Assembly (NCBI GenBank): GCA_037574385.1
Contig: GCA_037574385.1_4529.1
DNA length: 64,000 nucleotides
Direction: 5' to 3' (one strand)
From: a phage
Shown here: piece after piece, positions 12,857-64,000 of the stretch
Layout of the letters: each line of letters opens with the position of its first letter
Position numbering within the stretch: position 1 is the stretch's first letter
Translations under genes and position numbers: made by a program
The notes under the pieces: model-generated
What the model saw: only the letters and a program-made list of their open reading frames with translations
Database searches by the model: none
Told to the model about the DNA's origin: nothing

Positions 12857-13080
12857 TATTTTACTAAAGATTCAATATACTCATGAAGAGCTTTAGTCGC
12901 TACTGCCCACTTGTTCTGATATTCATTTTTCAGATTAGCACGAGACTGAACTAACAAGCGGTCGTTAGTCGGAGGCAAAGATTCTAATCGTTGAATCTGA
13001 CGGCCATAAATCATAGCCGCCATTTCAGAGTCATAGATAAGTCCTTTAAGGTATTCATGCTGTTCTTTAGTCATTGACAT
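12856..13080 (-). CDS. Hypothetical protein
   Basis: 74-aa ORF. Confidence 0.45.
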   Translation of the reverse strand: MSMTKEQHEYLKGLIYDSEMAAMIYGRQIQRLESLPPTNDRLLVQSRANLKNEYQNKWAVATKALHEYIESLVK

Positions 13081-13361
13081 TTTTCCTCTTTTAAACCACT
13101 ACGATAATAACATAACATAGTCTTCTGGTCATGTACATATCTTTTTACGTCGTTTAACCAGATACGAAATTCTTGAGAGTCTTCAAATGGCATTCCAACC
13201 CATGGATTACCATCAATAACCTTTACCTGCCATTTCTGGTTATATTCAACAATAGATTCAGGCCATTGCGGATGTAAAGTTTCTTTAGGGCTTAAGGGCA
13301 CATCTTGGGCACATCCAGCCAAAATGCCAATAGATAATACAACTGCGGTTAATTTAATCAT
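13071..13361 (-). CDS. Outer-membrane lipoprotein, o-spanin candidate (Rz1 equivalent)
   Basis: 96 aa; signal peptide with lipobox LAGC; immediately downstream of and 4-nt overlapping the i-spanin candidate; T4 spanins (pseT.3/pseT.2) map to this neighbourhood. Confidence 0.55.
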   Translation of the reverse strand: MIKLTAVVLSIGILAGCAQDVPLSPKETLHPQWPESIVEYNQKWQVKVIDGNPWVGMPFEDSQEFRIWLNDVKRYVHDQKTMLCYYRSGLKEEKCQ

Positions 13362-13714
13362 TCTGAGAGCTTCCTGAGGTCTTCTGCAAAGGAATCGAAG
13401 GACCTGTTGATTTGTTTTTCAACCAATCCTGGTTTACTTGCCACCACGTTCTTCTTCTTCGAATCCTTACGGAGCTTTTCATTTTCAGCCTTAAGTTGGT
13501 CAACTAAAACACGGTTCTTATAAGTCATTTCTTCGATTGACTGATATTGAACTTTGAAGTCGTCTAATACTTTAGCATTGTTTTTAGCAGTCTCTTTAAC
13601 AGAAGCCAATTCAGTATTCAACGAATCAACTTTGTTGTTTAAGACAACTATTGTTACAGTAGAAACTAGAGCAAAAGCTGCTACTATAGCATAAATCGGA
13701 TTTACTTTAAGCAT
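13358..13714 (-). CDS. Inner-membrane-anchored coiled-coil protein, i-spanin candidate (Rz equivalent)
   Basis: 118 aa; N-terminal TM segment (IYAIVAAFALVSTVTIVVL) followed by charged coiled-coil-like periplasmic region. Confidence 0.55.
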   Translation of the reverse strand: MLKVNPIYAIVAAFALVSTVTIVVLNNKVDSLNTELASVKETAKNNAKVLDDFKVQYQSIEEMTYKNRVLVDQLKAENEKLRKDSKKKNVVASKPGLVEKQINRSFDSFAEDLRKLSE

Positions 13715-19711: not shown

Positions 19712-20572
19712 TTATACCGCCATTTTAGCTTTGATAGCTGGATGTGATTCGTAATTTTTAAGAATAAAGTCTTTAGGACGAAGTTTTAATACGTATTCGA
19801 TTTGTTCTTCGGTTGATAGATGTCTAAATTTGTATGGTAATCCGTTAATAACTAATTCACACAACTCTTTAGGTTCACGACGTAAAACTTCTTTGCATTG
19901 CTCTACGTGGTTGCTGTAGATATGCGTATTGCCGCCTGAGAACACTAAATCACCCGGGATAAGGTTACACATCTTCGCTACAATATGCGTCAAGGCAGCG
20001 TACGAGGCAATGTTGAACGGCAAGCCCAAGAAAACATCAACACTTCTCTGGTACCATTGTAAATCAAGATAACCATTACGCACATTGAACTGATAGAACA
20101 TATGGCAAGGAGGAAGAGCCATTTGATTTATTTCGGCCGGATTCCAGGCAGAAACAATTTGACGACGATCAGTTGGTAATTTTTTAATACGGTCGATTGT
20201 TTCAACTAATTGGTCCACACCACCGAAATCACGCCATTGTTTACCATATATAGGACCAAGTTCACCACTATGATAACCAAGGTCTTTTGCCTGATTTTCG
20301 TAATTATCGTCCCAAATAGTTTTACCTTCAATTAGACTACCATGAGTACGAAGACGTAATTCATTAACATTAGTAGAACCTGACATGAACCACAGTAACT
20401 CGGCAATACAAGCTTTCCATGCTAATTTCTTAGTTGTTACTGCAGGGAATCCTTTAGTCAGATCCCAACGTAATTTAGTTCCGAACAGGGCAATTGTTCC
20501 TGTGCCTGTACGGTCGTCTGTTTCGTAGCCATTTTCTAGGATATCATTAATCAGGTATTGGTATTGTTTCAT
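19712..20572 (-). CDS. td: Thymidylate synthase (uninterrupted)
   Basis: 286 aa in one ORF (T4 td is split by a group I intron); ThyA-like motifs and close match to T4 Td. Confidence 0.9.
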   Translation of the reverse strand: MKQYQYLINDILENGYETDDRTGTGTIALFGTKLRWDLTKGFPAVTTKKLAWKACIAELLWFMSGSTNVNELRLRTHGSLIEGKTIWDDNYENQAKDLGYHSGELGPIYGKQWRDFGGVDQLVETIDRIKKLPTDRRQIVSAWNPAEINQMALPPCHMFYQFNVRNGYLDLQWYQRSVDVFLGLPFNIASYAALTHIVAKMCNLIPGDLVFSGGNTHIYSNHVEQCKEVLRREPKELCELVINGLPYKFRHLSTEEQIEYVLKLRPKDFILKNYESHPAIKAKMAV

Positions 20573-25275: not shown

Positions 25276-28200
25276 ATGGTTGACATCAAACGTAAGTTCA
25301 GGGCCGAAGATGGTCTTGACGCAGGCGGTGATAAGATAGTTAACGTTGCGCTTGCTGACCGCACAGTTGGCACCGATGGCGTGAACGTTGACTTTTTGGT
25401 GCAAGAAAACACCGTACAGAATTATGACGAGACGCGCGCGTATACAAAAGATTTTATTGTTCTTTATGATAATCGTTTTTATCAAGCTTTAAACGATATT
25501 CCAGCTCCGGCAGGCCCTTTCTCTTTGGCTAAATGGAAGGCAACTCGTACAGATGCAGAATGGATTACAGTTCAAGGCGGAGATTTCCAATTATCAGTAG
25601 GTAACTCTATCGCGGTTGATACTTCAGCTGGCACTGATATTAATTTCACTTTGCCTCAAAATCCTTTAGATGGCGATACAGTTATTTTGTCTGATATTGG
25701 TGGTAGAGTAGGCTATGTAAAAGTTCAAATTACTGCAGAGGCTCAAAGTATTGTAAACTTTAGAGGACAACAGGTTCGTTCAGTTTTAATGACGCACCCA
25801 AAATCTAAAATGGTCTTCATTTTTAGCAACCGCCTATGGCAAATGTATGTTTCTGATTACGAACGTAATGCAGTCACAGTAACTCCTGCTAAGCCATATC
25901 AGGCGCAACCTAATGATTTTATCATTCGACGTTTTACATCAGCCGCTCCTATTAATATTACATTGCCTCGTAATGCTAATAATGGCGATATTATTAATTT
26001 AGTTGATTTAGACAAATTAAACCCATTATATCACACAATTGTCAAAACTTACGATGAAACAACTTCTATACGAGAAGCTGGTGTTCATGTAGCAGAAGGA
26101 CGTAATACTGCGGAAGCATTCTTTGTTTATGATTCTGCTAATAGCTTATGGCGTGTTTGGGAAGGTGACCAGAAATCTCGTTTACGTATAGTTCGTAATG
26201 ATACTGATTTACACCCTAATGAAGAAGTTCTTGTTTTTGGAACTAATAATGATACAATCTCGACGGTAAATCTTACTTTGCCTACAGATATTTTGTCTGG
26301 CGATACTGTTAAAATATCGTTGAATTATATGCGTAAAGGGCAAACTGTAAAAATTAAAGCTGCTGAAGGCGATACAATTGCTAGCAGTATTTCTTTATTA
26401 CAGTTCCCAAAACGTTCGGAGTATCCACCTGATGCACAATGGGTTTCTGTTAGTGAGCTGGAATTTAATGGTGATACTTCGTATGTACCTGTACTTGAGT
26501 TAGCTTATATAGAAGATTATTCATCTGAAACAAAATATTGGGTAGTTCAACAAAACACCGTAACCGTCGAACGAGTCGATGCATCGAGCAATACAACTAG
26601 AGCTCGTTTAGGTGTTATTGCGCTTGCTTCTCAAGCGCAAGCAAATGTTGATTTAGAAAATGCTCCTGGTAAAGAACTGGCTATTACTCCGGAAACATTA
26701 GCAAATCGTACAGCAACTGAAACTCGTCGTGGTATTGCTCGTATTGCAACAACTGCACAAGTTAACCAGAATACCGATTTTGCATTCCAAGACGACTTGA
26801 TTATTTCTCCTAAGAAATTGAACGAACGTACAGCAACTGAAACCCGTAGAGGTGTTGCTGAAGTTGCAACTCAGGCTGAAACTAATGCTGGCATAGATGA
26901 TACCACTATTATTACTCCTAAGAAATTGGATGCCCGTCAAGGTTCTGAAGTTTTATCTGGTATTGTAAAATACACATCTACGACTGGTACTACAGCTGCT
27001 ACTATTCGTGGTAATGCTGGGACTAACGTTTATAACAAAGCTGTAGATAATTTAACTATTTCTCCAAAGGCTCTTGACCAGTATAAAGCTACCCCTACTC
27101 AACAGGGCGCAGTAATTCTTGCTATTGAAAGTGAAGTTATCGCTGGCGAATCACAAGCTGGTTGGGCTAATGCTGTAGTGACCCCTGAAACTCTGCATAA
27201 GAAAACTTCTACTGATGGGCGTATTGGTTTAATTGAAATTGCTACGCAAGCAGAAACTAACACTGGAATTGATTATACTAGAGCAGTAACGCCTAAGACG
27301 TTAAATGATAGGAAAGCTACGGAAGGATTATCCGGCATAGCCGAAATTGCTACGCAAGTTGAATTTGATACTGGAACTGACGATACTCGTATCTCGTCTC
27401 CACTGAAAATTAAAACTCATTTTGATTCTTCTGACCGTACCAGTGTTAATTCTGATTCCGGACTTATTGAAGAAGGAACCTTGTGGAACCATTATACTCT
27501 TGATATTTCTAAAGCAAATGAAACACAACGTGGTACACTTCGCGTAGCAACCCAAGCAGAATCTAATGCAGGAACTTTAGATGATGTTCTTATTACTCCT
27601 AAAAAGCTTTTAGGGACTAAGTCCACTGAAACGTCTGAAGGCGTAATTAAGGTTGCTACTCAGGCTGAAACTGTAACAGGAACTTCTGCTAATACTGCTG
27701 TATCTCCTAAGAATTTAAAATGGATTGTCCAGAATGAACCAACATGGGCTGCTACTACTGCAATAAGAGGTTTTGTTAAAACTTCATCAGGTTCAATTAC
27801 ATTCGTTGGTAATGATACAGTTGGTTCAACACAACCTTTAGAATCATATGAAAAAAATAGCTATGCGGTGTCACCATATGAATTAAACCGTGTACTTGCT
27901 AACTATTTGCCATTGAAAGCTAAAGCCGTAGATAGTAATCTGTTAGATGGTCTAGATTCTCTTCAGTTCATCCGTAGAGACATCGACCAGACGGTTAATG
28001 GTTCTTTAAGTCTTACTAAGCAGACCAACCTGAGTGCTCCTTTAGTATCTACAAGCACTGCTTCTTTTGGGTCCGAAGCATCTGTTACTCGTAGATTAAC
28101 TCTTAACGACTCTAGCGGTTCTGAAATAGTTTTCACTAAAGGAACCCAATCTCTTAGTAATAAAGAGAATTTCGTTGTTAGAGCATGGGGTAATAGCGCT

Positions 28201-29117: not shown

Positions 29118-30242
29118 ATGGAAAAATTTATGGCAAGGTTTGGACAGGGATACGTCCAAACGCCATTTTTATCGGAAAGCAATTCAGTTAGATTTAAACT
29201 AAGTATAGCGGGTTCATGCCCGCTTTCAACAACTAATCCGTATATTTTGTTCCAAAATGAGCCTTTAGGGTTGCAGTCTTTTGGTATTGGACTAAATGTT
29301 AGGGTAATAAATCCGGAAAATGGAACTATAGTTGATAGTAAATTATACAATTTTGCGCCTACAAATAATGCAACTTCAGCTGCATTTATTTCGTTTGTTA
29401 ATACATACGCAGATAATTTCATTTTCGCATTTATTTCTAATAACAAATTTAATTTGCCGCCAGAAATAATTGAATGGTTTAAAGCTGCTGGGAGTTCAGT
29501 TATACCGTCAATTGAAGTTGCTAGTCTTGTTGATATTTCATATTCAGCGTTTTATGTTTCAGGTAAAAATACTATTGCATTAGAACACATAAAATACAGT
29601 AATAAGAAAACAATTTCGGATTACTCAACTCCATTAGATATTGTATATGACTCTATTGCTGATATAGGTGCTACCGGCTATCCTAGACGTACATATGAAG
29701 CTCTAGAAACGTTTTTATCTCCTGTTGGAGGAACTAACAATGAAATAAAAAGGGTGCCTACATCATCCCTTGTTACTCCTATCGCAAACTATGGATTAAA
29801 GCCTACAGATTTTCTTTATTTGAAATTTCAATTAATGGCTGATGAAGCATTACTAGAGGAAGGAACCACAAGACTTTCAATTCGTTTCTTTAAGTCTCCA
29901 TCTAGCTCTCCTATATCGTCTAAAGATATAAACTTTGACGGAACTGCTGGTGAATGGAAGCTATATGAAGAATACGTTGAAATACCAGCTGAAGCCGATG
30001 GCTTTACAGTATATTGTTACCGTACGGCCCCAGTCGGTCAAGGTGGACTAAGAAATGTTATTTTTACTGAAGTATCATGTAACGGAAGTATAGCAAAACC
30101 TGCCGAGTTTGGCCTAAATGGTATTCGTGCTAATTACATCGATGAATCATTAACCGGTAATGATATAATGGACTTGCCTACTCAGTTATCTAACGACACA
30201 GGTAAGGTATTTGGGCAGGAATTTAAAGAGTACACAGAATAA
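29118..30242 (+). CDS. 35: Long tail fibre hinge protein gp35
   Basis: 374 aa; position and size as T4 gp35. Confidence 0.75.
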   Translation: MEKFMARFGQGYVQTPFLSESNSVRFKLSIAGSCPLSTTNPYILFQNEPLGLQSFGIGLNVRVINPENGTIVDSKLYNFAPTNNATSAAFISFVNTYADNFIFAFISNNKFNLPPEIIEWFKAAGSSVIPSIEVASLVDISYSAFYVSGKNTIALEHIKYSNKKTISDYSTPLDIVYDSIADIGATGYPRRTYEALETFLSPVGGTNNEIKRVPTSSLVTPIANYGLKPTDFLYLKFQLMADEALLEEGTTRLSIRFFKSPSSSPISSKDINFDGTAGEWKLYEEYVEIPAEADGFTVYCYRTAPVGQGGLRNVIFTEVSCNGSIAKPAEFGLNGIRANYIDESLTGNDIMDLPTQLSNDTGKVFGQEFKEYTE

Positions 30243-40016: not shown

Positions 40017-40157
40017 TCACCATATTAATGAACGAATAACCATTATAACATCTGAAATGAAAAGCACTACTTGGATTAGTCCAAACATCACACCGTAGTA
40101 CAGAACCGTAAGCAACAACAAGAGCCCGAAGGCTCCTGTTAAGATTTTCTTAATCAT
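40017..40157 (-). CDS. Small hydrophobic membrane peptide (46 aa)
   Basis: Hand-called: MIKKILTGAFGLLLLLTVLYYGVMFGLIQVVLFISDVIMVIRSLIW; start overlaps stop of the upstream small ORF (TAATG). It contains a UUCG hairpin in its coding sequence, so it may instead be non-coding. Confidence 0.35.
   Translation of the reverse strand: MIKKILTGAFGLLLLLTVLYYGVMFGLIQVVLFISDVIMVIRSLIW
40122..40135 (-). terminator. UUCG-tetraloop hairpin (lies within candidate small ORF)
   Basis: GAGCC-UUCG-GGCUC on - strand. Confidence 0.35.
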
Positions 40158-40303
40158 TACTCGCCTTTTAATACGTTAAGAAGAGCTAAGACTGCTAAGG
40201 TACCTTGTGATACGGCCTGTTGAAATACTGTTGTTTCGCCCGTAACTAAAGTGTTAACGAATAAAAACGACCAACACAGCAATGCAATAATCCATGCTAC
40301 CAT
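40157..40303 (-). CDS. Small hydrophobic membrane protein (48 aa), ac-like by size and position
   Basis: Hand-called: MVAWIIALLCWSFLFVNTLVTGETTVFQQAVSQGTLAVLALLNVLKGE; SD GAGGT upstream; T4 has the small membrane gene ac between ndd and 52. Confidence 0.45.
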   Translation of the reverse strand: MVAWIIALLCWSFLFVNTLVTGETTVFQQAVSQGTLAVLALLNVLKGE

Positions 40304-59361: not shown

Positions 59362-60380
59362 ATCTTCGAATAACGAGATAATCTCATTTTAGCATGCAAC
59401 CCACTTGAAATATTCTGTTTCATATATTCTAAAATTTCTTGTGGTGTTGCATTTTCTTTCATTACCATATCATTCACATCCTTTGATCTCCATGGAGCTC
59501 TATCCCAGAACATAACACGTTCGCCTGCATCTACTAATCGCTTCATACGAGCTATAGTATCCGGATGCCTAGGTTCATTATCCATTACCCATACCCGACG
59601 TTCTTTAAATGGTACCACATCTAAATCTATTGAGCCGCCTGTAATAGCGATTGCATTGGGTATGAATAAACTATCAATAGGGCCTTCCATTACCCAGACG
59701 TCTCCTTCCTTAACACGTTCAACACCATAAATTTTTGTTGCAGACTCAAACGCTTTAATAGTGATATATTTCTGAGGAGCATCTTTACGAAGTGCACGTC
59801 CTTGGAATGACTCGGCCTTCCCGTCTTTATTAAAAATAGGAATCACTAAACGTGGTTCAGGAATCTCTTTCTTATACGTACCAGGTTGAATTTTGTTAAC
59901 CAATTTAGGCCATTCTAATGTGAACCATAATCTGTTCCACGATTCTTTAGGAATACACCGAGACTTAACATATTTCACAATAGGATGCTCTTCAGGCAGC
60001 TTGTCCAGACGAGAACAAGACGGCAAAGAATTTATAGTCTTTTTCTCCGGTTCTGGTTTATGTTCAGGAACCTTTTCAATCTTTGGTTCCATTCTAGCTT
60101 TTTCTTTACGAACTTCCATTAGATATTCACGATAAAGATCTTCGTCATACTCTTTTAAGTATCCGGAAATTGTATTATGATATTGACAGTTATAGCAATG
60201 CACATTACCTGGAGTACCGCCATAATACCATCCGCGAGCTTTCATTGCATCTGTCTGAGAGTCGCCACAAACTGGACAACGAAACGTTAATTTAAATGTG
60301 CTTGAATTATTGATTTGTCTAAAACGAGGTAGGTGAGAAAACGCACGATAAGCAAATTCATTATCTATCCATTCAGCCAT
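59358..60380 (-). CDS. 61: DNA primase gp61
   Basis: 340 aa (T4 gp61 342 aa); N-terminal zinc ribbon CPVCGDS...CYNCQYH; Toprim-like core. Confidence 0.85.
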   Translation of the reverse strand: MAEWIDNEFAYRAFSHLPRFRQINNSSTFKLTFRCPVCGDSQTDAMKARGWYYGGTPGNVHCYNCQYHNTISGYLKEYDEDLYREYLMEVRKEKARMEPKIEKVPEHKPEPEKKTINSLPSCSRLDKLPEEHPIVKYVKSRCIPKESWNRLWFTLEWPKLVNKIQPGTYKKEIPEPRLVIPIFNKDGKAESFQGRALRKDAPQKYITIKAFESATKIYGVERVKEGDVWVMEGPIDSLFIPNAIAITGGSIDLDVVPFKERRVWVMDNEPRHPDTIARMKRLVDAGERVMFWDRAPWRSKDVNDMVMKENATPQEILEYMKQNISSGLHAKMRLSRYSKI

Positions 60381-60419
60381 AGTATTCTCCAGAGGCCTTA
60401 AATTAATAAGGCCATCATA

Positions 60420-60914
60420 TCACAACTTATTGATATTTACTTTAATTCGCTTTCTTTTCTTGGAAGGAATTTGTTCTGGACCTTTATTTACGACTGCACC
60501 TGTAGTTGTTCCTGATGCAATAGCTTGAGGACTGCCACCTGAATCACCAGCCACCATATCCTCAAATAAAGGGAGTTCTTTAAATATTTCTTTCTGCTGT
60601 TCTTCTGTAATGTTATAGCGGGATGCTACAGCACTCCAGGCAGACATCATTGAGGCCATTCCATTAAGACCCGGAACAGTGCTCATCATTCGCTTCATTG
60701 AACGAACTGAAGCATGAAAAGGTGTATAAGCCGCTTTCTCTTCAGGAGTGGAAGGACGTTTAAGAACACTTCCACGTTCGTCGATGATTTTGGCTTCATA
60801 CGCTTTCCATTCGGTAAAAGGTTTTTGCATTAGACGAATAAACTTATATGCATAAACTGAATCTATTGCAGTGTTAATAATACCCATAGGTACCTCCTGA
60901 GTATATTTAATCAA
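60420..60914 (-). CDS. Hypothetical protein (61.1 position)
   Basis: 164-aa ORF downstream of primase. Confidence 0.5.
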   Translation of the reverse strand: MIKYTQEVPMGIINTAIDSVYAYKFIRLMQKPFTEWKAYEAKIIDERGSVLKRPSTPEEKAAYTPFHASVRSMKRMMSTVPGLNGMASMMSAWSAVASRYNITEEQQKEIFKELPLFEDMVAGDSGGSPQAIASGTTTGAVVNKGPEQIPSKKRKRIKVNINKL

Positions 60915-61104
60915 TCACAAAGATCGCTTTATCACCGTTCGCATCTGTGACTTCATATGTAGTGTCTTCATAGTGTGGAATATTCCAAATTACACCGTCA
61001 TTAGCTTTTACGCTAATATGACATTGGTGTTTTGAAACAACTTCATAATCTTCAAAACTTGTAAAAACACTAATTTTAGAACCAGTGCAAATTGCAGTAG
61101 TCAT
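60907..61104 (-). CDS. Hypothetical protein
   Basis: 65-aa ORF. Confidence 0.4.
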   Translation of the reverse strand: MTTAICTGSKISVFTSFEDYEVVSKHQCHISVKANDGVIWNIPHYEDTTYEVTDANGDKAIFVID

Positions 61105-61105
61105 T

Positions 61106-61765
61106 TTAACCTCGATTCATAAATGCATTAAATATTTGGTCATCAACAGAAATTTCTAATTCGACTTCAATTGCTTCAGCCTTTTCTTCAGGTGGTAATT
61201 CGTATCCACACACTACAATTTTTTCATCGATATCAAAATATACAGAAGCAATATGATTAATGTTATTTTCAGTTAAGTCTAAATCAACATCAACATCTTT
61301 TTGACCTACACTTAAAGGATAACTAATACGGGTTATTTTATTATCTTTAACAAAGAGTCCACCAACATACTCTGTACTACGTTTGAAGTTTACACGTTTC
61401 CGAATTGAAAGATATGATGCATCTTTACCGTGAGCTCGGCTCATAGGACATAATGAATAACTAGAATAAGAGATATCAAATCCTACGCCTTCAACATGTG
61501 CCAGAGTATCATGAGTAAACCAATTATAGTCGTATGCCAAATCCATTAAATTATAATATGTGAACGGAACTGGATTAACGTCATACGTTGTACCTTTAAA
61601 ATCTGCCCAGGCAACGATTTCGTTATCTTTAACAATTACAAAAATTACACCAATATGGTATCCGTTATTATTTTCATTCGGCGTTATATTATAACATTGT
61701 GCATTAGGAAATTTACCATATTTAAATGGCGCGTTTTTGTGCATATAATAAATCATATTATTCAC
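61106..61765 (-). CDS. Hypothetical protein
   Basis: 219-aa ORF. Confidence 0.5.
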   Translation of the reverse strand: MNNMIYYMHKNAPFKYGKFPNAQCYNITPNENNNGYHIGVIFVIVKDNEIVAWADFKGTTYDVNPVPFTYYNLMDLAYDYNWFTHDTLAHVEGVGFDISYSSYSLCPMSRAHGKDASYLSIRKRVNFKRSTEYVGGLFVKDNKITRISYPLSVGQKDVDVDLDLTENNINHIASVYFDIDEKIVVCGYELPPEEKAEAIEVELEISVDDQIFNAFMNRG

Positions 61766-62051
61766 CTGTGATTTCGGTTACGATATCTTTGTTATCGAAA
61801 TTAGGGTCACAATACAAAACATAGTTGTACTGCATGATACCGCCAGACTTAAGTTGTTCAACAACTTTATTAACCATATTAGGACGGTCTCGTTTAGTGA
61901 TGTTCATGATATCAGAGAAGATTTGTTGTTCAACATCTTCTTGATTTGCAGTCATTGACCACTCACAGAGGTCTTTATCATAACCTGCTGTAACTGGAGC
62001 TGGTGCACATGATACTGCAAGTAAGATTGCTGCCAATGATAACTTTTTCAT
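61758..62051 (-). CDS. sp: Spackle periplasmic protein (gp5 lysozyme inhibitor, superinfection exclusion)
   Basis: 97 aa, same as T4 Sp; signal peptide; AGYDKDLCEWSMTA, DIMNI.KRDRP, LKSGG.MQYNYVLYCD match T4 Sp. Confidence 0.7.
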   Translation of the reverse strand: MKKLSLAAILLAVSCAPAPVTAGYDKDLCEWSMTANQEDVEQQIFSDIMNITKRDRPNMVNKVVEQLKSGGIMQYNYVLYCDPNFDNKDIVTEITGE

Positions 62052-62114
62052 TTTAACTCCTTAGTTGATTTGATAGGACTACTATACTATAGTCCATCTA
62101 TAATGTAAACAAGT

Positions 62115-62363
62115 TTATTCTTTTTCGCGAATAATAATTACTTGTTGAGGCTGCTGAGCAGATTTCTTTTCGGCAACGATAGACCAAATTAAAGTTCCAA
62201 TCCAACCAACCATCGTCCAGTTAAAGAGCAAAGATACAAAGAAGATTGCTGTTGTGCTTTTTGTGCCACGAATAAGTGCGATTACCCAAGGCAACATGTA
62301 AATGATGATTGAACCAATACCTGCGATTAAAACTGCTACTGAACTAGCTACGAATAATTCCAT
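62115..62363 (-). CDS. Two-TM inner-membrane protein
   Basis: 82 aa with two long hydrophobic segments and charged C-terminus; directly next to sp. Confidence 0.5.
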   Translation of the reverse strand: MELFVASSVAVLIAGIGSIIIYMLPWVIALIRGTKSTTAIFFVSLLFNWTMVGWIGTLIWSIVAEKKSAQQPQQVIIIREKE

Positions 62364-62424
62364 GTTAATTTCCTCTTGATTTGTTATGTTTATAGTATCT
62401 TGTTTTAACTTTGGCGTAAACCAA

Positions 62425-62793
62425 TTAATTAAATTTGTTTAAACGTTCAATACACTGGACGTAGTTATTCGCGATTTGTTTCTGGGTAGGCTCTTTACCA
62501 GTTGTTTCAATATAGCGAATGAATGCGATTTCAGTAGCCTGTAAGCAATGTTCTTTAACGCGTTGTTCTTTTGTCAATGCTACAGTATCAGAATCACGAT
62601 AACGTTGAGCATGGGCATCAGCTTGAATCATTCGATTACCTACAGTAACCGGGTCTTCCACTTCAACTTTAGGTTGGTTGTACTGTTTAACATTCGGGTT
62701 ATAAATCAATTGGCCAACATTATTAGGGATAAAGCCGTGAGCACCACATCCAGTTAATCCGAATACCATTGCTAAAGCGATTAATTTTTTCAT
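62425..62793 (-). CDS. Putative lipoprotein
   Basis: 122 aa; signal peptide with lipobox LTGC. Confidence 0.55.
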   Translation of the reverse strand: MKKLIALAMVFGLTGCGAHGFIPNNVGQLIYNPNVKQYNQPKVEVEDPVTVGNRMIQADAHAQRYRDSDTVALTKEQRVKEHCLQATEIAFIRYIETTGKEPTQKQIANNYVQCIERLNKFN

Positions 62794-62864
62794 TTCAATT
62801 TCCTCTGTAGTTGATAAAAAGATAGTAACACAGTATGTGGTGCTTGTAAACAGTTATTTTAAAA

Positions 62865-63074
62865 TTATCGAAAATCAGCTTCAAAAACTTTCTCGTCATT
62901 AATAAATGCTTTAACAAGTGCACTGTTCACTTCGGCGAGTTGTACCGCAACCCACTCGATTTCTTCACGATCACCTGATAACATGATATCTTTAGTGAAC
63001 ATCTCACCACTTTTAAACCAGCCAATAAAAGTAATTTTAGTTAATTTGCTCATATTTCCTCGCAAAATGCCCAT
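62865..63074 (-). CDS. Hypothetical small protein; weak positional candidate for Dmd (RnlA/LsoA antitoxin)
   Basis: 69-aa tracked ORF (about 62 aa from internal Met MSKLTKITFIGWF); size near T4 Dmd (60 aa) and in the 61-41 interval; identity unverified. Confidence 0.3.
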   Translation of the reverse strand: MGILRGNMSKLTKITFIGWFKSGEMFTKDIMLSGDREEIEWVAVQLAEVNSALVKAFINDEKVFEADFR

Positions 63075-63367
63075 TCAGCGTGATAAACTGTAGCACCTTT
63101 AGTATCGTTCATTTGAACTACGTCTACCGGAGAAATTACTCGATAGAGACGTGGTTCACCTCCATAAGAGCGTGCTGCTCGTCCTGCATAAATCTTTGCT
63201 AAACCGATATCTTCAGTAAAGAATACACGATTCAAGTTTTTCTTACGTCCAGTTTCAGACAGAACTCCTGTTTCTTCAGGAGGACAAAGCATGTTTTCGA
63301 TGTTAGCTGAACTACTTGAACCGTGATAAAAAATCTTAAATTCTGCTTTACAATCGATGGTTTTCAT
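63050..63367 (-). CDS. Hypothetical protein with H-G-S / Y / E pattern
   Basis: 105 aa; FYHGSSS, KIYAG and YHAEW elements occur in the order seen in H-Y-E class ADP-ribosyltransferase folds, but the protein is short; tentative. Confidence 0.4.
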   Translation of the reverse strand: MKTIDCKAEFKIFYHGSSSSANIENMLCPPEETGVLSETGRKKNLNRVFFTEDIGLAKIYAGRAARSYGGEPRLYRVISPVDVVQMNDTKGATVYHAEWAFCEEI

Positions 63368-63422
63368 TTTGTTCTCCAGTAGTTGATAGGTCTATAATAA
63401 CACAACTACTGGAGAAGTAAAC
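63368..63422 (-). promoter_or_regulatory. Early promoter module with 14-bp inverted repeat pairing spacer to SD region
   Basis: GTTTACTTCTCCAGTAGTTGTGTTATTATAGACCTATCAACTACTGGAGAACAAAATG; arms TTCTCCAGTAGTTG / CAACTACTGGAGAA. Confidence 0.5.
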
Positions 63423-63797
63423 TTAAAAACGTAATTTAGATATATCTGCGTTGATTTCGTTTTGGTTTGCGTCGTATGCAATTAAACGAACCGCTTTAGA
63501 TGGGTCATTCAATGCATAGAAATGATGGAACATTGCTCGAACGATATCACCATTTACGAGTTCTACCTGGATAGGAGAACCTTTTTCTAGTTGGAAATGT
63601 TCATAAGCTTTGATGGTTCGCAGATAATCAAGTTTTTGATTTCCGGCTCCAACAATTTGTACGATACGTTTGCCCATGTTTTCCATACGAGATACAATAG
63701 TTTTAGGAGCAAGAATAACGTAGGTTGCCAACGGAGAAACTACTTCAACAGTTGTGTTTTCGGTGATTGCAGTAAAAATTGCTTGAGACATATTCAT
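63423..63797 (-). CDS. Hypothetical protein
   Basis: 124-aa ORF with PeSL-type promoter upstream and UUCG hairpin after the gene 41 stop. Confidence 0.5.
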   Translation of the reverse strand: MNMSQAIFTAITENTTVEVVSPLATYVILAPKTIVSRMENMGKRIVQIVGAGNQKLDYLRTIKAYEHFQLEKGSPIQVELVNGDIVRAMFHHFYALNDPSKAVRLIAYDANQNEINADISKLRF

Positions 63798-63862
63798 AAT
63801 GTTTTCCTCTTGGTTGGTGTAAGTACATCATATCATGCCTAGAGGAAGATGTAAACCCCGAA

Positions 63863-63880
63863 AGGAGACCGAAGTCTCCT
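63863..63880 (-). terminator. UUCG-tetraloop hairpin after gene 41
   Basis: AGGAGAC-UUCG-GUCUCCU just after the candidate gp41 stop. Confidence 0.5.
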
Positions 63881-63893
63881 TTTTATTAAAATT

Positions 63894-64000
63894 TTAACTC
63901 ATTGGCTAAGCTATCTAGGTCAGCACGTGTTGCTTTGGCTTTACCTACGCGTTCCGTACGATTCACCTCTGCCTGACGCATCTGAGCACCTGCGTTTTCA
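63894..64000 (-). CDS. 41: Replicative DNA helicase gp41, 3' end only (continues beyond window)
   Basis: Open frame ending ...RADLDSLANELKF-stop at about 63894; identity inferred from synteny (61 cluster then 41). Confidence 0.45.

Follow-up and report, generated by a model that had tools for sequence, protein, structure and literature searches.

Three ORFs of envelope type lie one after another on the minus strand of the window (the whole stretch of phage DNA analysed here, 64,000 nucleotides in length): sp (61758..62051, 97 aa), imm (62115..62363, 82 aa) and imm.1 (62425..62793, 122 aa), each with a Shine-Dalgarno motif, AAGGAG or GAGG, located 6–8 nt 5' of its ATG. A preliminary description of this DNA had listed them as spackle, a two-TM membrane protein and a lipoprotein, and all three were found where it had placed them. 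The 3-kb block in which they are located (61000–64000) has 97.6–98.7% DNA identity to RB69-like phages (Mosigvirus); at least 80% of the block is covered in each of 151 phage records, 156 matches stand at 95–99% DNA identity, and the three genes themselves are 96–100% identical to annotated genes in RB69-like phages. Judged by this DNA identity of about 98%, the phage of the window is an RB69-like Mosigvirus. The RefSeq annotation of RB69 already names sp, imm and imm.1, in the same order. By homology, the cluster consists of T4 sp, imm and imm.1 in their RB69-type form, all of them genes described long ago. In our Pfam searches the matches were judged against the curated gathering cut-offs, and all three proteins score above them; NCBIfam gave no match for Sp, Imm or Imm.1, and an Rfam scan of 60000–64000 gave no match either.

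Sp matches the Pfam family T4_Spackle (PF25676) with 145 bits (cut-off 27, 1.1e-42) over residues 1–96 of the 96 profile positions, matches phrog_1586 of PHROGs at 2.9e-42, and is 66% identical to T4 Sp across all 97 residues, which supports the original identification as sp. A signal peptide is present in the 97-aa protein, as had been expected, with an MKK start, a hydrophobic core at residues 3–20 and a cleavage site (VTA followed by G) at 22/23. We infer from these features that removal of the 22-residue signal peptide leaves a mature Sp of 75 aa, which acts in the periplasm and inhibits the gp5 tail lysozyme; gene 5 itself is absent from the 64-kb window. In T4 Sp, residues 1–22 are cleaved, as experimentally shown by N-terminal sequencing (PMC7650644), and the protein binds the gp5 lysozyme domain at a 1:1 ratio, inhibiting it by an allosteric mechanism (PMC7650644, PMC7677548). 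The window Sp keeps Gly23, Cys29, Cys81 and the gp5-contact residues S32, M33, T34, A35, Q37 and N76 (the contact list is taken from PMC7677548). Over the Sp proteins of four genera, C29, S32, M33, T34, A35, N76 and C81 are invariant, and Q37 is replaced in Jiaodavirus. The likeness to T4 Spackle (gp61.3) therefore extends from the length of 97 aa, the A-x-A/G site at 22/23 and the Cys29-Cys81 pair to the gp5-contact residues and to the position of the gene downstream of 61.2 in both T4 and the window; the two proteins differ in 34% of residues, mostly in helices 2–3. The S14-C15 pair of a lipobox-like motif is also invariant in Sp of the four genera. A reading of Sp as a lipoprotein was set aside because T4 Sp is cleaved after residue 22 according to N-terminal sequencing (PMC7650644). 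A functional analogy for Sp is offered by the bacterial lysozyme inhibitors MliC, PliC and Ivy, which are periplasmic proteins or lipoproteins directed against peptidoglycan hydrolases; Sp is, however, evolutionarily unrelated to them and binds away from the active site (PMC7677548, PMC7650644). When T4 Sp alone was overexpressed, the T4 titre was unchanged, and the authors propose the neutralisation of stray gp5 as its main role (PMC7650644).

The two-TM protein, which the preliminary description did not recognise as a T4 gene product, is by family match and alignment Imm, the classical T4 immunity-to-superinfection protein of the inner membrane. It scores 56.9 bits against Pfam Imm_superinfect (PF14373; cut-off 27.9, 1.8e-15), matches phrog_1039, "immunity to superinfection", at 1.2e-30, and is 64% identical to T4 Imm over the full length (83 columns). 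Its hydrophobic stretches at approximately residues 1–34 and 40–59, with RGTKS between them, agree with the two TMs first proposed for the 82-aa protein, and an alignment covering seven genera shows that the two hydrophobic segments, the basic loop and a QVIIIREKE tail are conserved. These two segments, an RG-KS loop and the same tail are what the window protein shares with T4 Imm. The differences concern the setting of the gene: imm of the window adjoins sp and has a promoter-like element of its own, whereas T4 imm lies between 43 and 42 and is read through from imm.1. Lu and Henning reportedly obtained exclusion in 1989 from plasmid-borne T4 imm alone. Imm is a plasma-membrane protein that blocks the genome translocation of the secondary phage but not its adsorption (PMC6832632), and imm and sp are given as T4's two exclusion functions in reviews (PMC6832632, PMC9952470). 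In the part of PMC9952470 that refers to Lu, Stierhof and Henning (1993), Imm alone is described as insufficient for immunity, so that it must act with another membrane protein. The initial reading of the cluster as a superinfection-exclusion module is thus upheld for two of the three genes, sp and imm, which are T4 exclusion genes.

The 122-aa protein scores 38.8 bits against Pfam DUF5481 (PF17578; cut-off 27, 1.4e-9), matches phrog_1754 of PHROGs at 2e-29 and is 33% identical to T4 Imm.1. No protein of the neighbourhood has diverged further between T4 and the window: its neighbours are at 54–74% (gp61, 74%; AdfA (61.2), 66%; Sp, 66%; Imm, 64%; Dmd, 54%). The lipobox is canonical (LTGC, Cys16), as the preliminary description had noted without recognising imm.1, and Gly rather than Asp occupies the +2 position. 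The Lol sorting rule of E. coli assigns lipoproteins that lack Asp at +2 to the outer membrane, and outer-membrane sorting is therefore predicted for Imm.1. Throughout the family, Asp is missing from the +2 position and an N-terminal segment is conserved. The lipobox Cys is found in eight of nine aligned sequences of the family, in which Cys83 and Cys114 are both invariant; in a larger alignment of 20 sequences, Cys114 stays invariant and Cys83 nearly so. Between the lipobox and a C-terminal helical hairpin that carries Cys83 and Cys114 there is an unstructured tether of about 30 residues with an invariant YNPNVK-Y motif. T4 Imm.1 has the lipobox, the YNPNVK-Y motif and the two C-terminal cysteines in common with the window protein, and in both phages the gene is located immediately upstream of imm; the window protein, however, has neither the extra Cys pair nor the 8-residue insert of T4 Imm.1.

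An AlphaFold model of Imm.1 consists of a disordered tether (residues 1–46) and helices at 48–70, 75–98 and 104–120. Please note that the models are poor, with a mean pLDDT of 60.6 (4-sequence alignment) or 61.3 (20-sequence alignment), and that confidence is confined to the C-terminal helical hairpin. Fold searches with these models returned its own family or generic helical matches only. MliC, PliC and Ivy are also a conceivable analogy for a lipoprotein such as Imm.1, whose model, however, is helical and matches no solved structure significantly. Six clusters were found with Imm.1 when 1.8 billion representatives were searched exhaustively with a profile, and word-index plus profile searches for homologs found a handful of T-even-type clusters only. 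A profile built from nine members found about 15 further matches, apparently all phage lipoproteins. The same profile also gave one marginal Xanthomonas match (E=3e-4). The family phrog_1754 unites lipoproteins from eight Tevenvirinae genera. As judged by these searches, the Imm.1 family is narrow and confined to phages. Within one genus it is strongly conserved: Imm.1 is at least 95% identical to that of T4 in all 502 Tequatrovirus records, including T2, AR1 and Yersinia, Salmonella and Citrobacter phages. Our literature search for imm.1 found no experimental record, and the term was met only in a comparative-genomics study. This study listed Imm.1 as T4-specific and absent from the RB69 group (PMC5885020). 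On homology, the RB69 group does have a divergent Imm.1 ortholog, which corrects this gene-content comparison. An assignment of Imm.1 as an o-spanin was rejected in view of its early-type promoter and its pairing with imm rather than with an i-spanin gene. Elsewhere in the window, at 13071–13714, there is a separate pair of a lipoprotein and an N-terminal-TM protein that resembles spanin genes.

Each of the three genes is preceded on the minus strand by an early-type promoter-like element. Those upstream of sp (62081..62109, TTTACA-N17-TATAGT, in which the preceding G gives GTTTAC) and of imm.1 (62822..62850, TTTACA-N17-TACTAT, with an extended TG) came from the promoter scan; the one upstream of imm (62392..62420, TTTACG-N17-TACTAT) was read by eye and from the alignment of upstream regions, and is missing from the scan list because it scores only 8/12 against the sigma-70 consensus. 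Over the upstream regions of five successive genes, in which GTTTAC-N17-TAnnnT is combined with an RBS, the GTTTAC and the TAnnnT hexamer are invariant. GTTTAC-N17-TAnnnT is the shape of T4 early promoters. With an early-type promoter for each gene, the three proteins are therefore probably made within minutes of infection, and such immediate-early expression fits an exclusion function. In T4, sp has the same GTTTAC...TACTAT arrangement upstream, and imm, which starts 11 nt after imm.1, has no promoter of its own; in the window, the imm.1-imm spacer is 61 nt. The sequence 5' of imm.1 is closely similar in the window and in T4 (AACTGTTTACAAG...TACTAT...TATCAACTAC), and it therefore appears that the imm.1-imm cassette has moved together with its promoter.

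The cluster had been described as larger than its T4 equivalent, which is not the case because T4 carries all three genes. The imm.1-imm pair of T4 is located between 43 and 42 at 26373–27013, the two genes being 11 nt apart under one promoter, and sp (61.3) is located at 19758–20051, between 61.2 and 61.4 and approximately 6.3 kb from imm.1-imm. The difference from T4 is one of location and not of gene content: the same gene set is brought together in RB69-like phages. The contiguity of the three genes comes from the position of the imm.1-imm cassette, which adjoins sp in the Mosigvirus lineage, and this arrangement is fixed across about 155 Mosigvirus genomes. In seven other Tevenvirinae genera examined, the cassette is in the 43-42 interval; in T4, Dhakavirus and Jiaodavirus, sp and imm are at separate loci. 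In RB69, the 43-42 interval is occupied by several genes, among them two with the annotations arabinose-5-phosphate isomerase and phosphoheptose isomerase. It also contains a small ORF, described in the annotation as "similar to T4 42-imm intercistronic region", that has the appearance of a scar left where imm once stood. The lipoprotein gene immediately precedes imm in T4, the window, Merlin, JD18 and S16 (Tequatrovirus, Mosigvirus, Moonvirus, Jiaodavirus and Gelderlandvirus) and immediately follows it in fDHCT2 (Dhakavirus) and RZ (Gaprivervirus), i.e., an imm.1-type lipoprotein adjoins imm in seven Tevenvirinae genera. The exception is Karamvirus CC31, in which the lipoprotein is kept between 43 and 42 and imm was not detected in the first 50 kb, the part scanned. 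On a metagenomic contig, the imm/lipoprotein pair is found in a third setting, where it follows a Frd3-like gene.

We consider it probable, with good confidence, that the locus is an RB69-type (Mosigvirus) arrangement of three named T-even early genes in which Sp and Imm have T4-like roles. Sp would be exported, cut after residue 22 and bound in the periplasm to the gp5 lysozyme domain, either that of incoming T-even tails or that of stray gp5 from the phage's own assembly; gp5 in this complex would bring about no cell-wall digestion, no lysis from without and no tail-tube penetration. This step has been shown for T4 and is carried over to the window phage by the 66% identity and the conserved contact residues. 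Imm in the inner membrane would halt the crossing of secondary phage DNA and leave it stranded in the periplasm, a step that was genetically shown for T4 and is carried over by the 64% identity. Imm.1 would undergo lipoprotein processing and would probably end up in the outer membrane, on its inner leaflet. Our best guess for its role, a tentative one, is that Imm.1 helps Imm or provides the same barrier with a third layer, further out. In 1993 it was proposed that full exclusion by Imm requires a second phage protein; Imm.1 may be that protein, for which it seems a reasonable candidate, if still a doubtful one. In a fuller reading, which we regard as rather unlikely to hold in all its parts, Imm.1 in the outer membrane, with its flexible tether and disulfide-stapled hairpin, and Imm would together close the DNA-injection route, and with Sp the three proteins would form a three-layer barrier.

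The link between imm and imm.1 on which this guess depends could also be purely transcriptional, since the two T4 genes stand 11 nt apart under one promoter. Imm.1 might be unrelated to exclusion, tied to imm only as one small transcription cassette, and have a separate role in the envelope, for example in envelope stabilising, in lysis timing or lysis inhibition, or in inhibiting a host periplasmic enzyme. CC31, in which the lipoprotein is kept and no imm was detected nearby or in the first 50 kb, indicates that the lipoprotein and Imm are separable and speaks against an obligate tie, and no fold or family clue connects Imm.1 to any exclusion protein. The exclusion reported for plasmid-borne T4 imm alone also counts against a helper role of Imm.1. 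However, the adjacency of the two genes survives the inverted order in Dhakavirus and Gaprivervirus, the relocation in Mosigvirus and the different context in the metagenomic contig; in the window the two genes have separate promoters and are still neighbours, a persistence that exceeds what a shared transcript requires. Survival of inversion and relocation suggests a functional tie between imm and imm.1, as far as gene order can tell, and we put the chance that Imm.1 has nothing to do with exclusion at a substantial level, somewhat short of even. Another role in the envelope would be that of a receptor-masking lipoprotein like T5 Llp or phi80 Cor, i.e., Imm.1 would bind the receptor from the periplasmic side, block adsorption and keep the progeny from being lost on cell debris. 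T5 Llp and phi80 Cor are likewise small early phage lipoproteins that act in the envelope against secondary phage, and Imm.1, as a small, early-expressed, predicted outer-membrane lipoprotein of a virulent phage, resembles Llp in general make-up (PMC9586334). T4-infected cells, however, still adsorb the secondary phage, and exclusion is a post-adsorption event (PMC6832632). Among the Pfam and PHROG matches no Llp/Cor family was found, nor was one found in the fold searches, and unlike these proteins, to which it has no sequence or fold similarity, Imm.1 shows no co-variation with receptor type. Tequatrovirus phages such as T2, AR1 and the Yersinia, Salmonella and Citrobacter phages use different receptors. 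Since Imm.1 is at least 95% identical over the 502 Tequatrovirus records in spite of these diverse hosts and receptors, it does not track receptor specificity, and receptor masking appears to us very improbable.

The position of sp beside imm.1-imm is a separate question, and here a reading with no functional meaning has about an even chance, perhaps slightly better: the neighbourhood could be a by-product of early-promoter cassette shuffling when the Mosigvirus 43-42 interval was refilled. The near-identical GTTTAC...TAnnnT promoter and RBS cassettes could serve as recombination sites for such events. The content of the 61-41 interval varies, both from genus to genus and inside a genus (RB69 has 61.4, the window lacks it, and there are extra ORFs), the old imm slot of RB69 holds sugar-metabolism genes, and in T4 and the other genera checked sp and imm are kilobases apart. 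Three envelope genes in a row are also not uncommon by chance. A crude hydropathy flag marks 13 of the 98 ORFs in the window as hydrophobic, and a run of at least three such ORFs occurs in about 15% of shuffles; the adjacency of the three envelope genes is for this reason statistically unremarkable, and the co-location with sp need not be selected. The fixation of the arrangement in about 155 Mosigvirus genomes argues against mere shuffling, though it may reflect just common descent. The significance of the cluster is in the identity and conservation of its genes, not in the clustering statistic.

As a finding on the window itself, the cluster carries little weight, with near-identical annotated genes known and two of the three having textbook T4 functions; what is unusual is limited to the three genes standing side by side in Mosigvirus and to the lipoprotein Imm.1. 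Exclusion genes determine the winner of a co-infection and are for this reason relevant to therapeutic T-even phage cocktails. If the tentative role of Imm.1 in exclusion is true, its conservation within genera (at least 95% identity) as against 33% identity between them could contribute to genus-specific exclusion, e.g., the exclusion of T4 by RB69. A lipoprotein linked to imm in seven genera offers a concrete and cheap-to-test candidate for the partner of Imm that was postulated about 30 years ago.

The signal peptide of Sp, the spackle protein that inhibits the gp5 tail lysozyme, occupies 62007-62051, and we compared it across four genera (window, the T4 locus L002, and loci L010 and L011). 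Ser14-Cys15 is invariant in all four and lies within a lipobox-like motif, [LAV][AVS]SC, which reads LASC in T4 Sp; an A-x-A site at residues 20-22 is also kept. Soluble periplasmic T4 Sp is cleaved after residue 22, as determined by N-terminal sequencing (PMC7650644), and this cleavage does not account for the conserved Cys15; there may be a lipidated sub-population of Sp.

T4 Imm.1 (L002:9637-10014, NP_049661.1), a 125-aa lipoprotein, carries the RefSeq name "iduronate sulfatase", which has been copied into other records (fPS-2, HP3). Since DUF5481 is the only Pfam match in the 125 residues, this name looks like an annotation error. The RB69 group has been listed as being without Imm.1 (PMC5885020); contrary to that listing, an Imm.1 ortholog does occur in the group, at 33% identity.

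The Imm.1 family extends to Enterobacter phage CC31 (Karamvirus), where the lipoprotein gene lies between genes 43 and 42 (L009:1462-1902). Over positions 1-50000 of CC31 (L012), with a further 115 kb of genome beyond them, no imm homolog was found by HMM, the top match reaching only E=0.022, while the same HMM recovered the window imm at 2e-38. On a metagenomic contig (L013:718-1351, Logan SRR30535852), an Imm.1 variant, P0002 (~46% identity), reads LAGF, i.e., Phe replaces the lipobox Cys, and P0002 is therefore probably a soluble periplasmic form of Imm.1, judging from this motif. Its gene is still directly upstream of an Imm homolog and lies downstream of a Frd3-like gene, which is a third genomic context of the Imm.1-imm pair.

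Other T-even phages keep imm in the gene 43 to gene 42 interval, whereas the annotation of the corresponding RB69 interval (L007:3857-8199, at the RB69 locus) lists an arabinose-5-phosphate isomerase, a phosphoheptose isomerase and a gene similar to mannose-1-P guanylyltransferase. A 36-aa ORF in the same interval (L007:7424-7534, corresponding to RB69 29823-29933) is annotated as similar to the T4 42-imm intercistronic region, and it looks like a remnant scar of the displaced imm locus.

Within the primase-to-helicase interval, exclusion genes are mixed among other small early accessory genes such as adfA and dmd. Gene 61.2 (61106-61765), which encodes the anti-DarT factor AdfA (PF23813, 6.4e-120), is directly downstream of sp, with an 8-nt overlap between the two, and dmd, annotated in the RB69 record as a regulator of mRNA stability, is found near sp, imm and imm.1. 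The mechanical ORF call places dmd at 62865-63074 (69 aa), but this start is set 7 codons too early, the likely true ATG being at 63053-63051; GAGGAAAT precedes this ATG, which shares an ATGA overlap with the stop of the upstream ORF, and the same overlap between dmd start and upstream stop is present in RB69. The upstream ORF (63050-63367; 105 aa, phrog_2110, RB69ORF040c) shows a weak match, below threshold, to the Arr-ms rifampin ADP-ribosyltransferase family (E=0.083). At the gp61.1 position, the window has a single 164-aa ORF (60420-60914), with phrog_2086 over residues 10-162 and 75% identity to T4 gp61.1 in the C-terminal 40 residues, whereas in RB69 the same stretch is annotated as gp61.1 (92 aa) plus a separate ORF032c (63 aa). 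The discrepancy points either to a frameshift difference or to a split made by the RB69 annotation.

Elsewhere in the window, a minus-strand pair at 13071-13714 encodes a 96-aa lipoprotein (ILAGC lipobox) and a 118-aa protein whose membrane segment is N-terminal, the two genes overlapping by 4 nt. This looks like the o-spanin/i-spanin pair, which in T4 is pseT.2/pseT.3. Two tiny neighbouring membrane ORFs lie at 40017-40303.

Gene 61.4 is present in T4 and, in RB69 (213 bp), sits between imm.1 and dmd; it is absent from the window, where the imm.1-dmd spacer (62794-62864) is only 71 nt long and contains the imm.1 promoter. Among the Mosigvirus matches listed, the block occurs in two forms, 3001 bp without 61.4 and ~3206 bp with it, and 61.4 is therefore, as judged from these matches, a presence/absence polymorphism inside the genus.
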